NCBI RefSeq assembly: GCF_046105845.1
Contig: NZ_CP151004.1
DNA length: 64,000 nt
Direction: 5' to 3' (one strand)
Source of the DNA: Escherichia coli
Lineage (GTDB): Bacteria > Pseudomonadota > Gammaproteobacteria > Enterobacterales > Enterobacteriaceae
Part shown: positions 460-47,725 of the stretch, in pieces
Layout of the letters: the number at the start of each line of letters is the position of its first letter
How positions within the stretch are numbered: the stretch's first letter is position 1
The notes under the pieces: generated by a model
The model's input: only the letters and a program-made list of their open reading frames with translations
Databases searched by the model: none
Told to the model about the DNA's origin: nothing
Position numbers and translations under genes: made by a program

Positions 460-739
460 ATATTGTGGTACTTTTTGTGGGAGTCATCCACTTACGCACT
501 TTGTTTTGCTATGCCAGCAGTTAGCTTCTGCTGTAAAACTATTCATGCAGCAAACCTGCACTTCACCACAATGGTTAGCATACTTTTCCTGATTAAGTTA
601 TTGCCAAATATGCTGGCCATTGTTTCATGTATTGGACCTCCTTACTATTTATTAAAGAGATCCAATATTCACCACTCTGTCTGTATCTCCACTCAGGCAT
701 CAGCCTTCTTCGTTATCGTATACAGACAAACTATGAATT

Positions 740-955
740 TTAATCAGTAATTATGACATTTGCTGCTGCAGGACCTTTAGCACCACTCTCTACAGAGAAG
801 GTAACCTTTTGACCTTCAAATAAGGTTCGAAAATTATCATTCTGAATCGCAGAAAAATGCACAAACACATCTTTACTACCATCAACAGGAGAAATAAAGC
901 CAAAACCTTTATCAGCGTTAAACCATTTTACTAAACCAGTCATTTTATTTGACAT
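740..955 (-). CDS. cspB: Cold shock protein CspB (CspA family)
   Basis: 71 aa [38 protein letters not shown]...; canonical RNP1/RNP2 motifs of the CspA family. Confidence 0.9.
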
Positions 956-1255
956 TCTACATTCCTTAACTTGAGCCTTTCGGCATAAATGGCTTGTATA
1001 ACAGAAACGACTTCGTACTTAATTGGAGAGACTCAAAGAAGGAATAAGTGAATAACACCTGAAATGAGAACTGCTTTAGTAAACTACTTCGTATATCGTC
1101 TGTTCTTCAAACCGACGCAATCATTAACGCATAGTTGAACATATGAAGCAATGTTTATTTTAGACATCCAGCCATCTTCAACCCCATCAAAAAACTATAG
1201 CTTTCTTCAGGAACGTGTGTATAGTGCGCCCAGTTATCAGTATTAAGGAATTTTT

Positions 1256-6718: not shown

Positions 6719-7547
6719 GACGATGCCCTCCGCTGATATTCAGGAGACGGTGAATATGAAAATTAGCCTTATCCGCCAGACGAATACGTTCAGCCTGCAA
6801 GTTAAGAAGGGTTTCTACCAAAACCTGATGCGCCTGCGGATCCGAAAGAGTTACCTTGCGCAGAGCACGTAGTGCAGTTGTTACATAACTGAGTTTATGT
6901 AAGTCTTCATCATTCAGACGAGTGAGGGCTGGGACAGTAGCCATGATGGCAGCCTCCGATAACAGTGAATTACCTTCACCACCGGAAACGCCAATTTCGC
7001 TGGTGGTGAACTGAACGGGGTTGGCGTAACCGGCGTTATCGGAAACCGGCGCACCTTTCGGTGCCCCCGTCCAGCCCACCATAATTTGGGTGTGCACAGA
7101 CACAGACGATAAAAAAGACGCTGGCGCGTCATATATCGCCGATAACATTTCCAGGACGCCAATCCCGTCACCCGCTTTATAAGGTGCCTGAACAGTGTAA
7201 CGTCCCGGAATGGCAGAATCAATGTGCTGGTGGTCCTTCACACTCAACAAAATCACGCCTGAATTTCCACAAAGGACTAAAGCACTCATGCGGGTAGTCT
7301 TTGCGAAGATAGATAACGCGCTGTGTTTCTGGTTCCCAACGAATAACATGGACATAAAGCCCTCTTCCGTCACGAAACCAGCGGTTAAGTTCCCGCACAA
7401 CTCGCCCCCCACAGTCAGGTAAAGTTCTCTGTGGTTACTTACAGCCAGGTGATTTGGTAATCTGCATTCATGCCGTAACAACAGGTGTTCAGCGACACTG
7501 ACCACCAGCTGTTGCGACAAACGGTTATTTGCCGTTAAACTGTTCAT
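6711..7547 (-). CDS. Hypothetical prophage early-region protein
   Basis: 278-aa ORF in the cro-side early operon; no motif recognised. Confidence 0.55.
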   Translation of the reverse strand: MNSLTANNRLSQQLVVSVAEHLLLRHECRLPNHLAVSNHRELYLTVGGELCGNLTAGFVTEEGFMSMLFVGNQKHSALSIFAKTTRMSALVLCGNSGVILLSVKDHQHIDSAIPGRYTVQAPYKAGDGIGVLEMLSAIYDAPASFLSSVSVHTQIMVGWTGAPKGAPVSDNAGYANPVQFTTSEIGVSGGEGNSLLSEAAIMATVPALTRLNDEDLHKLSYVTTALRALRKVTLSDPQAHQVLVETLLNLQAERIRLADKANFHIHRLLNISGGHRHA

Positions 7548-18606: not shown

Positions 18607-18693
18607 GCGAAGGTGGCGGAATTGGTAGACGCGCTAGCTTCAGGTGTTAGTGTCCTTACGGACGTGGGGGTTCAAGTCCCCCCCCTCGCACCA
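18607..18693 (+). tRNA. leuQ: tRNA-Leu (CAG)
   Basis: 87 nt GCGAAGGTGGCGGAATTGGTAGAC...CTTCAGGTG...CCTCGCACCA; anticodon loop CTTCAGGT (CAG); encoded CCA. Confidence 0.95.
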
Positions 18694-18721
18694 AAAACCA
18701 CGTTGATATTGCTCGCACTGG

Positions 18722-18808
18722 GCGAAGGTGGCGGAATTGGTAGACGCGCTAGCTTCAGGTGTTAGTGTTCTTACGGACGTGGGGGTTCAAGTCCCCCCCC
18801 TCGCACCA
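18722..18808 (+). tRNA. leuP: tRNA-Leu (CAG), one variable-arm substitution vs flanking copies
   Basis: 87 nt; identical to copy 1 except C-to-T at 18769. Confidence 0.95.
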
Positions 18809-18842
18809 AACGAGGCGATATCAAAAAAAGTAAGATGACTGT

Positions 18843-18929
18843 GCGAAGGTGGCGGAATTGGTAGACGCGCTAGCTTCAGGTGTTAGTGTCCTTACGGACG
18901 TGGGGGTTCAAGTCCCCCCCCTCGCACCA
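18843..18929 (+). tRNA. leuV: tRNA-Leu (CAG)
   Basis: 87 nt; identical to copy 1. Confidence 0.95.
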
Positions 18930-42658: not shown

Positions 42659-44248
42659 ATGAACAATAACGATCTGGTCGCGAAGCTGTGGAAGCTGTGC
42701 GACAACCTGCGCGATGGCGGCGTTTCCTATCAAAACTACGTCAATGAACTCGCCTCGCTGCTGTTTTTGAAAATGTGTAAAGAGACCGGACAGGAAGCGG
42801 AGTACCTGCCGGTAGGCTACCGCTGGGATGATCTGAAATCCCGTATCGGTCAGGAGCAGTTGCAGTTCTACCGTAACCTGCTGGTACATCTGGGCGCCGA
42901 CAATCAAAAGCTGGTGCAGGCGGTGTTCCAGAACGTCAACACCACCATTACCCAGCCGAAACAGTTGACCGAGCTGGTCAGCAATATGGATTCACTGGAC
43001 TGGTACAACGGTGCGCACGGTAAGTCGCGCGATGACTTCGGCGATATGTACGAAGGGCTGCTGCAGAAGAACGCCAACGAAACCAAGTCTGGCGCGGGCC
43101 AGTACTTCACCCCGCGTCCGCTGATTAAAACCATTATTCATCTGCTGAAACCGCAGCCGCGTGAAGTGGTGCAGGATCCGGCAGCAGGTACGGCGGGCTT
43201 TTTGATTGAAGCCGACCGCTACGTTAAGTCGCAAACCAATGATCTGGACGACCTTGATGGCGACACGCAGGATTTCCAGATCCACCGCGCCTTTATCGGC
43301 CTCGAACTGGTGCCCGGCACCCGTCGTCTGGCGCTGATGAACTGCCTGCTACACGATATTGAAGGCAACCTCGACCACGGCGGCGCAATCCGTCTGGGCA
43401 ACACCCTGGGTAGCGACGGTGAAAATCTGCCGAAGGCGCATATTGTCGCCACTAACCCGCCGTTTGGCAGCGCCGCAGGCACCAACATTACCCGCACCTT
43501 TGTCCACCCGACCAGCAACAAACAGTTGTGCTTTATGCAGCATATTATCGAAACGCTGCATCCCGGCGGTCGTGCGGCGGTAGTGGTGCCAGATAACGTG
43601 CTGTTTGAAGGCGGCAAAGGCACCGACATCCGTCGTGACCTGATGGATAAGTGTCATCTGCATACCATCCTGCGTCTGCCGACCGGTATTTTTTACGCTC
43701 AGGGCGTGAAAACTAACGTGCTGTTCTTTACCAAAGGGACGGTGGCGAACCCGCATCAGGATAAGAACTGCACCGATGATGTGTGGGTGTACGACCTGCG
43801 TACCAATATGCCGAGCTTCGGCAAGCGCACGCCGTTTACCGACGAGCATTTGCAGCCGTTTGAGCGCGTGTATGGCGAAGATCCCCACGGTTTAAGCCCG
43901 CGCACTGAAGGTGAATGGAGTTTTAACGCCGAAGAGACGGAAGTTGCCGACAGCGAAGAGAACAAAAACACCGATCAGCATCTGGCTACCAGCCGCTGGC
44001 GCAAGTTCAGCCGCGAGTGGATCCGCACCGCGAAATCCGATTCGCTGGATATCTCCTGGCTGAAAGATAAAGACAGTATTGATGCCGACAACCTGCCGGA
44101 GCCGGATGTATTAGCGGCAGAAGCGATGGGTGAACTGGTGCAGGCGCTGGGCGAACTGGATGCGCTGATGCGTGAACTGGGGGCGAGCGATGAGGCCGAT
44201 TTGCAGCGTCAGTTGCTGGAAGAAGCATTTGGTGGGGTGAAGGAATGA
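42659..44248 (+). CDS. hsdM: Type I restriction-modification M subunit HsdM (N6-adenine methyltransferase)
   Basis: 529 aa; SAM motif DPAAGTAGF and catalytic NPPF. Confidence 0.95.
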   Translation: MNNNDLVAKLWKLCDNLRDGGVSYQNYVNELASLLFLKMCKETGQEAEYLPVGYRWDDLKSRIGQEQLQFYRNLLVHLGADNQKLVQAVFQNVNTTITQPKQLTELVSNMDSLDWYNGAHGKSRDDFGDMYEGLLQKNANETKSGAGQYFTPRPLIKTIIHLLKPQPREVVQDPAAGTAGFLIEADRYVKSQTNDLDDLDGDTQDFQIHRAFIGLELVPGTRRLALMNCLLHDIEGNLDHGGAIRLGNTLGSDGENLPKAHIVATNPPFGSAAGTNITRTFVHPTSNKQLCFMQHIIETLHPGGRAAVVVPDNVLFEGGKGTDIRRDLMDKCHLHTILRLPTGIFYAQGVKTNVLFFTKGTVANPHQDKNCTDDVWVYDLRTNMPSFGKRTPFTDEHLQPFERVYGEDPHGLSPRTEGEWSFNAEETEVADSEENKNTDQHLATSRWRKFSREWIRTAKSDSLDISWLKDKDSIDADNLPEPDVLAAEAMGELVQALGELDALMRELGASDEADLQRQLLEEAFGGVKE

Positions 44249-45615
44249 GTGCGGAGAAATTGCCGGAGGGGTGGGTTGAGTGTGAATTATCCGAACTCGG
44301 TAACATTGTTACAGGGAAAACTCCCAGTACCAAGGAGCCTTCCAATTTTGGAGGCAGCATTCCTTTCATTAAACCAGGCGATCTTGATCTCGGTGGCTAT
44401 ATCATGAATACCGCCGATACTCTGACGGAGAAAGGGTTATCTCTTGTCCCCACTCTTCCTGCCAATTCAGTCGTTGTGACGTGTATTGGAAATTTAGGAA
44501 AAGTTGGAATTACCGCTAAAAAATCAGCATCTAATCAACAAATAAATGCATTGATCCCGTCAGAAAAGCTAAATGTAAAATTTGTTTATTACCAAATTTT
44601 AACATTAAAACCATGGTTAGAGTCTCAATCAGCAGCTACTACAATTGCGATTGTGAACAAGAGCAAATTTTCTCAGGCACCATTTAAATTCCCGTCGCTT
44701 GCCGAACAAAAAATCATCACTGAAAAACTCGATACGCTGCTGGCGCAGGTAGACAGCACCAAAGCACGTCTTGAGCAAATCCCACAAATCCTGAATCGTT
44801 TTCGTCAGGCTATTCTAGCTAATGCTGTGGAAGGAAAATTGACCGACGAATGGCGAGCCGGAAAATGTTATATTACAGAAATCAAAAAAATATCTGATAT
44901 TATTCAGAATGCTCAAGTCGGATTAGTTCGTTCAGCTTCAGATCAAAGCGAAATATGCACTCAAAAAATGAGAACGCCTTATATAAAAATGAATAACATT
45001 CACAATGTTCTCGGAACAAATTTAGAAAAACTCGCTTATGTCAACTGTGATAGCTATGAACTGGAAAAATATAGATTAAAAAATGGAGATTGGCTCTTTA
45101 ATACACGAAATAGTTATGAGTTAGTTGGTAAATCCTGTGTCTGGAATGGATGTAGCAATGCTGTATATAATAATAATATATTAAGAGTTAGACTAAAAGA
45201 AAACTACAATTCTGTTTTTTTAGATTATTGGTTTCACTCGTTCTATGGAGTGAGCATGCTTAATAGTATTAAATCCGCAACAACAAATGTTGCTGCGATA
45301 TATCAGAAAGAACTCTTAAGTAAAAGTGTTCCATTCCCCCCCCTTCCCGAACAAGCCGAGATTGTTCGCCGCGTCGAACAACTCTTCGCCTACGCCGACA
45401 CCATAGAAAAACAGGTCAACAACGCCTTAGCCCGCGTTAACAACCTGACGCAATCCATCCTGGCAAAAGCGTTCCGTGGTGAACTCACCGCCCAGTGGCG
45501 GGCCGAAAACCCGGATTTAATCAGCGGAGAAAACAGCGCCGCCGCGTTGCTGGAAAAAATCAAAGCTGAACGCGCAGCCAGCGGGGGTAAAAAAGCCTCG
45601 CGTAAAAAATCCTGA
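44245..45615 (+). CDS. hsdS: Type I R-M specificity subunit HsdS, apparently non-EcoKI TRDs
   Basis: 456 aa; ATGA overlap with hsdM; conserved N-terminal, central (LAEQKIITEKLDTLLAQVDSTKAR) and C-terminal regions flank two low-GC variable TRDs. Confidence 0.9.
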   Translation: MSAEKLPEGWVECELSELGNIVTGKTPSTKEPSNFGGSIPFIKPGDLDLGGYIMNTADTLTEKGLSLVPTLPANSVVVTCIGNLGKVGITAKKSASNQQINALIPSEKLNVKFVYYQILTLKPWLESQSAATTIAIVNKSKFSQAPFKFPSLAEQKIITEKLDTLLAQVDSTKARLEQIPQILNRFRQAILANAVEGKLTDEWRAGKCYITEIKKISDIIQNAQVGLVRSASDQSEICTQKMRTPYIKMNNIHNVLGTNLEKLAYVNCDSYELEKYRLKNGDWLFNTRNSYELVGKSCVWNGCSNAVYNNNILRVRLKENYNSVFLDYWFHSFYGVSMLNSIKSATTNVAAIYQKELLSKSVPFPPLPEQAEIVRRVEQLFAYADTIEKQVNNALARVNNLTQSILAKAFRGELTAQWRAENPDLISGENSAAALLEKIKAERAASGGKKASRKKS

Positions 45616-45749
45616 TCATTATTTTCTGGCGCACCTTTCCGGTGCGCTTTTTATTATTTTACGCCAATCATAACTCACGCAAATATATTTAAATCATTCC
45701 AGAAATTGCCTATTTTATTCTATTTTTAGCTGGACTTTCCCTGTATTTA

Positions 45750-45765
45750 CTGATGATATATCCAG
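45750..45765. promoter_or_regulatory. Putative LexA (SOS) box upstream of symE
   Basis: CTGATGATATATCCAG (CTG-N10-CAG) about 80 bp upstream of symE ATG. Confidence 0.4.
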
Positions 45766-45842
45766 GTATTTAGCGCGGTGCGGATGTGCGCCAACACACC
45801 CGCACCGCTCATCACAATCACTATTCCAGGAGAATAGCAGTT

Positions 45843-46184
45843 ATGACTGACACGCATTTTATTGCACAACCGTTCGAAGCAGAAGTCTCCCCGGCAAATA
45901 ACCGTCAATTAACCGTGAGTTATGCGAGCCGCTACCCGGATTACAGCCGTATTCCCGCCATCACCCTGAAAGGTCAGTGGCTGGAAGCCGCCGGTTTTGC
46001 CACCGGCACGGCGGTAGATGTCAAAGTGATGGAAGGCTGTATTGTCCTCACCGCCCAACCCCCCGCCGCTGAAGAGAGCGAACTGATGCAGTCGCTGCGC
46101 CAGGTGTGCAAACTGTCGGCGCGTAAACAAAAGCAGGTGCAGGCGTTTATTGGAGTGATTGCCGGTAAACAGAAAGTCGCGTAA
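45843..46184 (+). CDS. symE: SOS-induced toxin-like protein SymE (AbrB/SpoVT fold)
   Basis: 113 aa [52 protein letters not shown]... Confidence 0.9.
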
Positions 46185-46345
46185 CAGCGTTTACTCCCGG
46201 TTAACCACCGGGAGCCTTCCACTGACTCAATAGAAACTTTCCCCCTCAGTAAATATTTACCTGCCTGATTGTGCAGTAAAAATCTATTGTTTCAGTACGT
46301 TGCGAAAGCGATAATAGAGGCTTAGCAATGAGGAAGGCACATCTT

Positions 46346-47725
46346 ATGGAATCAATTCAAGCCTGGATTGAAAAATTTATTGAGCAAGCACAGCAACAAA
46401 GTTCGCAATCCACTAAAGATTATCCAACGTCTTACCGTAACCTGCGAGTAAAAGTGAGTTTCGGTTATGGCAATTTTACATCTATTCCCTGGTTTGCATT
46501 TCTTGGAGAAGGTCAGGAAGTTTCTAACGGTATATATCCCGTTATTCTCTATTATAAAGATTTTGATGAGTTGGTTTTGGCTTATGGTATAAGTGACACG
46601 AATAAACCACATGCACAATGGCACTTTTCTTCTGACATACCTAAAACAATCGCAGAGTATTTCCAGGCAACTTCAGGTGTATATCCTAAAAAATACGGAC
46701 AGTCCTATTACGCCTGTTCCCAAAAAGTCTCACAGGGTCTTGATTATACCCGGCTTGCCTCCATGCTGGACAACATAATCAACGACTATAAATTAATATT
46801 TAATTCTGGCAAGAGTGTTATTCCACCTATGTCAAAAACTGAATCATACTGTCTGGAAGATGCGTTAAATGATTTGTTTATCCCTGAAACCACAATAGAG
46901 ACGATACTCAAACGATTAACCATCAAAAAAAATATTATCCTCCAGGGGCCGCCCGGCGTTGGAAAAACCTTTGTTGCACGCCGTCTGGCTTACTTGCTGA
47001 CAGGAGAAAAGGCTCCGCAACGCGTCAATATGGTTCAGTTCCATCAATCTTATAGCTATGAGGATTTTATACAGGGCTATCGTCCGAATGGTGTCGGCTT
47101 CCGACGTAAAGACGGTATATTTTACAATTTTTGTCAGCAAGCTAAAGAGCAGCCAGAGAAAAAGTATGTTTTTATTATAGATGAAATTAATCGTGCCAAT
47201 CTCAGTAAAGTATTTGGCGAAGTGATGATGTTAATGGAACATGATAAACGAGGTGAAAACTGGTCTGTTCCCTTAACCTACTCCGAAAACGATGAAGAAC
47301 GATTCTATGTCCCGGAGAATGTTTATATTATCGGTTTAATGAATACTGCCGATCGCTCTCTGGCCGTTGTTGATTATGCCCTGCGCAGACGATTTTCTTT
47401 CATAGATATTGAGCCAGGTTTTGATACACCACAGTTCCGGAATTTTTTACTGAATAAAAAAGCAGAACCTTCATTTGTTGAGTCTTTATGCCAAAAAATG
47501 AACGAGTTAAACCAGGAAATCAGCAAAGAGGCCACTATCCTTGGGAAAGGATTCCGCATTGGGCATAGTTACTTCTGCTGTGGGTTGGAAGATGGCACCT
47601 CTCCGGATACGCAATGGCTTAATGAAATTGTGATGACGGATATCGCCCCTTTACTCGAAGAATATTTCTTTGATGACCCCTATAAACAACAGAAATGGAC
47701 CAACAAATTATTAGGGGACTCATAG
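46346..47725 (+). CDS. mcrB: 5-methylcytosine-specific restriction enzyme McrB (GTPase subunit)
   Basis: 459 aa from internal ATG with AGGAAGG RBS; AAA+ Walker A GPPGVGKT. Confidence 0.95.
   Translation: MESIQAWIEKFIEQAQQQSSQSTKDYPTSYRNLRVKVSFGYGNFTSIPWFAFLGEGQEVSNGIYPVILYYKDFDELVLAYGISDTNKPHAQWHFSSDIPKTIAEYFQATSGVYPKKYGQSYYACSQKVSQGLDYTRLASMLDNIINDYKLIFNSGKSVIPPMSKTESYCLEDALNDLFIPETTIETILKRLTIKKNIILQGPPGVGKTFVARRLAYLLTGEKAPQRVNMVQFHQSYSYEDFIQGYRPNGVGFRRKDGIFYNFCQQAKEQPEKKYVFIIDEINRANLSKVFGEVMMLMEHDKRGENWSVPLTYSENDEERFYVPENVYIIGLMNTADRSLAVVDYALRRRFSFIDIEPGFDTPQFRNFLLNKKAEPSFVESLCQKMNELNQEISKEATILGKGFRIGHSYFCCGLEDGTSPDTQWLNEIVMTDIAPLLEEYFFDDPYKQQKWTNKLLGDS

Follow-up and report, generated by a model that had tools for sequence, protein, structure and literature searches.

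The DNA around symE in this Escherichia coli contig (NZ_CP151004.1) is almost certainly the E. coli symE/symR module, in which symE is preceded by an SOS operator and is controlled by the antisense RNA SymR. We analysed one stretch of 64,000 nucleotides, which we call the window, and all positions below refer to it unless K-12 coordinates are stated. The module and its SOS operator have already been described, and what we found is ordinary save for a few allelic differences from K-12. Because the feature is already known, it is of low interest, and it matters little beyond correct annotation: it is a textbook chromosomal cis-antisense RNA that guards an SOS-induced growth inhibitor.

Nevertheless, the analysis had some by-products. 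First, we can give exact coordinates for SymR in this DNA, while the RNA is unannotated in the RefSeq record of identical DNA. Second, K-12 has the less common form both of the LexA box and of the 3' stem of SymR, where it has an A·C mismatch. Third, an asymmetry in G·U pairs and covariation provide evidence, from sequence only, that it is the antisense strand which carries the conserved structure in 12 named enterobacterial genera.

The symE locus and the SymE protein

The gene order in the window is hsdM-hsdS-symE-mcrB-mcrC, which is an "immigration control" locus of E. coli. From 45616 to 46330, the identity is 100% with strain HCP5S3_I2 and 96% with K-12-type strains. The locus was matched in 2872 of 5426 complete E. 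coli genomes, and symE is annotated in 2872. The neighbouring hsdS (44245-45615) is an intact open reading frame of 456 amino acids that is just 43% identical to K-12 HsdS, so the type I specificity differs. The RefSeq record NZ_CM149870.1 has the same hsdS DNA but splits it into two partial pseudogene fragments, apparently an artefact of annotation. If we compare that record with the window, then the flanking hsdM, mcrB, and mcrC differ at 119 positions, but there is no difference in hsdS or symE, so that the locus appears to be a mosaic. Also, NZ_CM149870.1 (100% identical over 45616-46330) has no symR feature, whereas the K-12 annotation does.

Other RNAs were identified elsewhere in the window. 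On the minus strand, Rfam matches a C4 antisense RNA (6999-7086, 82.8 bits) beside isrK (7111-7187, 55.4 bits), a pairing that P4-like or cryptic prophage regions typically show. There is also a full-length match to the cspA thermoregulator (677-1116, minus strand, 156.5 bits), which presumably covers the leader and the coding sequence of a cold-shock gene of the cspA family. Finally, three tRNA-Leu(CAG) genes lie in tandem at 18607-18929 on the plus strand.

The symE coding sequence runs from 45843 to 46184 on the plus strand and encodes 113 amino acids plus a stop codon. These boundaries come from the listing of open reading frames and agree with the RefSeq annotation of identical DNA. The initial annotation, which was made from the sequence without database searches, had named this gene symE, and it was correct to do so: residues 20-71 match Pfam PF08845 (SymE_toxin) with 76.8 bits (the cut-off is 29), and the protein is identical to K-12 SymE at 109 of 113 residues (96%). 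The four differences from K-12 are S6F, H22Q, V23L, and G26S. By inspection, symE has a Shine-Dalgarno sequence, AGGAG, at 45828-45832 on the plus strand, and a purine-rich GGAG, AGGA, or GGGA is kept 10 nt 5' of the ATG in the orthologues. We accept the ATG at 45843 as the start codon because it has this Shine-Dalgarno sequence, because it agrees with both K-12 and RefSeq, and because all of the tblastn matches to homologues begin there. A start at GTG 45786, which would give an open reading frame of 132 amino acids, was rejected as a mechanical in-frame upstream extension.

The original function of SymE as an "endoribonuclease toxin" is disputed. Overexpressed SymE is reported to inhibit growth in K-12, and the dispute is over whether it does so by cleaving RNA or by condensing the nucleoid. 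In K-12, Kawano 2007 found that SymE caused RNA degradation and growth arrest and that it co-purified with ribosomes, and also that Lon degrades SymE (PMC1891008). The names toxin or endoribonuclease are still used in Pfam, in Rfam, and in most RefSeq records. On the other side, that same paper assigns SymE the MazE/AbrB DNA-binding fold (PMC1891008). According to a more recent review, Thompson et al. 2022 reported that SymE is without endoribonuclease activity, that it binds DNA non-specifically, and that its overexpression leads to compaction of the nucleoid (PMC11894785). The current K-12 record now gives the product as "nucleoid-associated protein SymE," while other RefSeq genomes keep "endoribonuclease SymE." So we give roughly equal credence to the view that the module is not a toxin-antitoxin system of the RNase type at all, and that SymE is an SOS-induced, nucleoid-associated, DNA-binding protein for which SymR acts as a translational brake. 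The sequence does not decide between the two activities. The anatomy of the module would be unchanged, as the question concerns the protein and not the box or the RNA.

Position, candidate promoter, and 3' end of SymR

SymR is a small RNA of 77 nt on the minus strand, with its 5' end at 45848 and its 3' end at 45772. When we scanned the whole window, the Rfam family RF01809 (symR) matched here with 93.5 bits (the cut-off is 61) over positions 1-77 of 77 (E = 5.5e-17). K-12 symR (b4625) is annotated at 4579835-4579911 of the K-12 genome and overlaps the first six bases of symE. The initial annotation had predicted from established knowledge that SymR would be antisense to the ribosome binding site and start codon of symE, at about 45790-45870 of the minus strand, and had proposed an alignment to K-12 symR as a check. 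That alignment delimits the RNA: it is collinear with K-12 symR and has the same ends, with three substitutions. The predicted strand and the overlap with the ribosome binding site and start were right, but the predicted coordinates were not, since the RNA is in fact about 20 nt to the left. SymR spans both the Shine-Dalgarno sequence and the ATG (45843-45845) of symE, which is also the arrangement in the K-12 annotation.

The three substitutions relative to K-12 have different consequences for the predicted structure. The one at SymR nucleotide 21 (45828) is in an apical loop, and the one at nucleotide 39 (45810) breaks the A-U pair at the end of the first stem. The one at nucleotide 44 (45805) replaces an A·C mismatch of K-12 with a G-C pair, so that the 3' stem has 15 uninterrupted pairs. 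In K-12, SymR has been cloned and was detected by Northern blot; it acts mainly by repressing translation, is in about 10:1 excess, is very stable, and acts without need of RNase III or Hfq (PMC1891008). By orthology, SymR should be expressed in this strain and should repress SymE here as well.

SymR is likely to have a promoter of its own inside the symE reading frame, and we have a candidate for it that consists of a predicted -10 element and a weak -35 element. The -10 hexamer is TAAAAT (45856-45861, minus strand), within codons 5-7 of symE, and it ends 7 nt before the 5' end of SymR. In K-12, the hexamer is TAGAAT. This is the site that was mutated by Kawano 2007: changing CATTCT to CACTCC in symE, which destroyed the minus-strand TAGAAT, abolished K-12 SymR (PMC1891008). 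The window reads CATTTT at this site. A single base, 45859 (T here and C in K-12), accounts both for the change from TAGAAT to TAAAAT and for the substitution S6F in codon 6 of symE. TAAAAT keeps the critical positions of a -10 element, which are the first, the second, and the sixth. The allele is rare, as no more than 15 of 2861 E. coli genomes contain an exact copy of the 35-mer at 45843-45877, and all of the other sequences in our comparison across species have TAGAAT or TACAAT as the symR -10.

The candidate -35 element of symR is TTCTGC (45879-45884, minus strand). We chose it by its spacing, which is 17 nt from the -10 element, and it is a weak match to TTGACA. The CAGAAG that lies under it on the other strand is nearly invariant across the orthologues, though it is also coding sequence. 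For symE itself, our candidate -35 element is TGGACT (45731-45736, plus strand). It lies inside a conserved block, GCTGGACTT, that is kept in most of the 31 enterobacterial loci that are described below. A scan of 45600-46330 for the sigma-70 consensus called no promoter for symE or for symR at its thresholds, so these promoter parts rest on K-12 genetics and on spacing.

After the 3' hairpin of SymR comes AAAUACCUG, with no U tract, both in this sequence and in all 31 orthologues. A terminator scan of 45600-46330 found none for SymR on the minus strand; the only hit was a terminator-like hairpin of hsdS at 45628-45648. Furthermore, the 3' end of SymR is just 4 nt from the LexA box. Given the missing U tract and this short distance, transcription of symR would run head-on into the operator and promoter of symE. 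This geometry, if real, would add a layer of control of symE in cis that goes beyond base pairing, either because LexA acts as a roadblock or because the convergent polymerases interfere with each other, and the 3' end of SymR would be formed by trimming instead of by intrinsic termination. We consider this scenario unlikely. Trimming back to a protective hairpin has been described for Rho-dependent transcripts (PMC6061677), and by analogy, it is a plausible origin for the 3' end of SymR. A search of the literature on the termination of SymR turned up nothing specific.

The LexA box upstream of symE

Our preferred reading is the established one, in which LexA controls the transcription of symE and SymR pairs with its mRNA. 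The LexA (SOS) box is TACTGATGATATATCCAGGT, at 45748-45767. Its CTG-N10-CAG core, CTGATGATATATCCAG, lies at 45750-45765, which is 78 nt 5' of the ATG of symE, and 8 of the 10 spacer bases are A or T. A LexA-box-like sequence of this form upstream of symE was the first claim of the initial annotation, and it is indeed there.

Taken alone, motif statistics are only suggestive. The bare CTG-N10-CAG pattern occurs 31 times in the 64-kb window, as compared to 12.3 expected. TACTGATGATATATCCAGGT agrees with the consensus TACTG(TA)5CAGTA (as quoted in PMC6590174) at 14 of 20 positions, which is the best score in the window, but a score of 14/20 was also reached in 25 of 300 simulated random 64-kb sequences (8%). 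When we searched the window for the consensus 20-mer with three mismatches or fewer, we found no matches, as the symE box has six. The best score is shared with a second LexA-like site, TACTGAATAAAAAAGCAGAA, at 47448-47467 inside the coding sequence of mcrB. This second site, which also scores 14/20 and has the identical sequence in K-12, is probably due to chance.

It is orthology that convinces us that the symE box is genuine. The box is identical to the yjiW/symE box of K-12 at 19 of 20 bases and is at the same orthologous position, and CTG-N10-CAG is kept at the orthologous place in 29 of 31 enterobacterial symE loci, even as the spacer varies. Kawano 2007 reports the K-12 box as a site of LexA binding at a damage-inducible promoter (PMC1891008). 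The expression of symE depends on LexA, and the K-12 box has a heterology index (HI) of 7.9 (PMC11228462). We would expect, by orthology, that LexA controls symE in this strain too.

The one difference from the K-12 box is the C at 45762, where K-12 has A (ATATACAG in K-12 and ATATCCAG here). Might the box have decayed, so that it is no longer functional and symE is outside of SOS control? This single substitution in the 20-mer lowers the match to the consensus from 15/20 to 14/20, a score that chance reached in 8% of the random 64-kb sequences above, and the K-12 box is itself of intermediate strength. However, decay seems very improbable to us. Most E. coli have the C allele: of the 2860 E. 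coli genomes that carry the locus, 1947 contain an exact copy of the 35-mer at 45744-45778 with this base, O157:H7 among them. It follows that K-12 holds the minority form and that there is no defect that is specific to this strain. E. albertii and E. whittamii have the C allele as well. Across the orthologues, CTG and CAG do not vary at all, whereas the base just before CAG can be A, C, or T. Several proven LexA boxes (those of uvrB, uvrD, ruvAB, and dinI) also have C at the same position.

The fold of SymR, its strand, and comparison with known systems

SymR is predicted to fold into two hairpins with a minimum free energy of -43.7 kcal/mol (z = -6.86; none of 200 shuffled sequences was as stable). 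For K-12 SymR, the corresponding energy is -37.8 kcal/mol. The 5' hairpin comprises nucleotides 1-39 (45810-45848, minus strand). Its apical loop (45827-45831) is the complement of the Shine-Dalgarno sequence of symE, and its 5' arm covers the AUG. With the Shine-Dalgarno sequence opposite the loop and the start codon opposite the arm, the pairing of SymR to the mRNA would occlude ribosome binding, which agrees with the experiments in K-12. The 3' hairpin comprises nucleotides 41-74 (45775-45808, minus strand).

We looked for orthologues in one genome per species (from the GTDB set) by using a degenerate pattern that was based on conserved bases of the 3' hairpin. The pattern fixed 19 bases of this hairpin, so these are invariant by construction, while the covarying positions and the entire 5' hairpin were left unconstrained. 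There were 119 matching loci, of which about 31 adjoin a SymE homologue (37-97% identity). Another 85 or so, which lie in GC-rich genomes and have no SymE in their vicinity, were discarded as matches by chance. The 31 loci come from 12 named genera: Escherichia, Salmonella, Citrobacter, Pseudocitrobacter, Kosakonia, Klebsiella, Raoultella, Kluyvera, Enterobacter, Entomohabitans, Pantoea, and Erwinia. In all 16 of the loci from other species or genera that were tested against RF01809, there was a full-length match (77-94 bits) that was antisense to the start of the SymE homologue.

Some other results of this search may be worth recording. In several genomes of Dyella (our loci L040-L042, L083-L084, L097-L102, L105, and L118) and in related ones (Luteibacter, L026 and L029), the pattern matched on two or three separate contigs each, and there was no SymE homologue nearby. 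These may be an unrelated GC-rich repeated element. At the symE/symR locus of Enterobacter sp. 10-1 (L061), Rfam also matches STAXI and EFASI RNAs about 6-7 kb away, at positions 6723-6907 and 7395-7523 of L061 itself.

Across the 31 SymR sequences, standard pairs account for 93.0% of the two-hairpin cells (89% for the 5' hairpin and 97% for the 3' hairpin), as compared to 23-51% after a shift of the 3' partners by 1-3 columns. Eight pairs are changed on both sides, a level that was reached by 2 of 500 shuffles. Five pairs in the 5' hairpin are changed on both sides, and in the 3' hairpin, pairs 44-71, 45-70, and 51-64 covary. For example, pair 44-71 is G-C in 14 of the 31 sequences, A-U in 9, and G-U in 6, and K-12 is one of the two A·C exceptions. 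The Rfam model leaves this pair unpaired, even though it covaries across species.

The strand of the structure can be read from the same alignment. In the orientation of SymR, the helices have 193 G·U cells versus 35 A·C cells. Read as the antisense strand, they are 93.0% paired, and read as the sense strand, 77.1%. The antisense strand is the more stable one in 31 of 31 sequences, with a mean of -40.5 kcal/mol as compared to -27.4 kcal/mol for the sense strand. The excess of G·U and the better folding of the antisense strand imply that the structure under selection is the antisense RNA and not a hairpin of the mRNA leader. We put almost no weight on the opposite idea, that the hairpins are a translational or stability element in the leader of the symE mRNA and that there is no separate antisense RNA: although a DNA hairpin may form on either strand, the sense strand does fold, and symR is missing from the RefSeq annotation of identical DNA, these strand asymmetries all favor the antisense RNA, there is a -10 hexamer 7 nt upstream of its 5' end and at the very site whose mutation abolished SymR in K-12 (PMC1891008), and the RNA itself has been cloned and detected in K-12. 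We do not make a strong claim that the leader is more conserved than the coding sequence, as the averages are similar: across the orthologues, the average identity is 78% for each, and the leader is at about 76% where the coding sequence drops to 60%.

Given SymR as an antisense RNA, the module most likely works as follows, where we infer LexA binding, SymR expression, and repression in this strain from the experiments in K-12. In an undamaged cell, a LexA dimer at 45748-45767 would sit on the symE promoter, past the -35-like TGGACT but before the leader begins, and block transcription. Meanwhile, the promoter in the first codons of symE (with its -10 at 45856-45861) would drive the synthesis of the 77-nt SymR whether or not there is damage. 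Since SymR is perfectly complementary to the symE leader, with its Shine-Dalgarno sequence and AUG, it would pair with any symE mRNA made in spite of LexA, keep this mRNA off the ribosome, and destabilise it somewhat. Upon DNA damage, LexA would be cleaved and the level of symE mRNA would rise, but SymE would be made only once the mRNA outruns SymR (and Lon).

The closest comparison is of course K-12 itself, where symE (yjiW, b4347) and symR (ryjC, b4625) are at the same locus between hsdS and mcrB. The RNA has the same placement (77 nt, with its 5' end at nucleotide 6 of symE) and the same two hairpins, and the box and the -10 element are at the same positions. K-12 differs by the A in its box at the equivalent of 45762, where the C of the window is commoner, as well as by three bases of SymR, by the TAGAAT of the symR -10, and by four residues of SymE.

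Beyond symE/symR, the module resembles tisB/IstR-1 in that a toxic gene under the control of LexA is combined with a constitutive small RNA that represses its translation, so that there are two locks (PMC1891008). The tisB box has an HI of 1.8 (PMC11228462). But IstR adjoins tisB and pairs with a limited region of its leader, whereas SymR is a cis-antisense RNA and the complement of the full leader. Also, TisB is a membrane peptide of 29 amino acids, while SymE is a soluble protein of 113 amino acids with an AbrB fold. The module resembles hok/Sok as well: in both, a short and structured antisense RNA, with its promoter in or near the 5' region of its target, represses the translation of a growth inhibitor. 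However, the antisense RNA of hok/Sok is unstable and its duplex is cut by RNase III, whereas the SymR of K-12 has high stability, is present in about 10-fold excess, and is independent of RNase III and Hfq (PMC1891008). And the classic hok/Sok systems are without the SOS operator that symE has.
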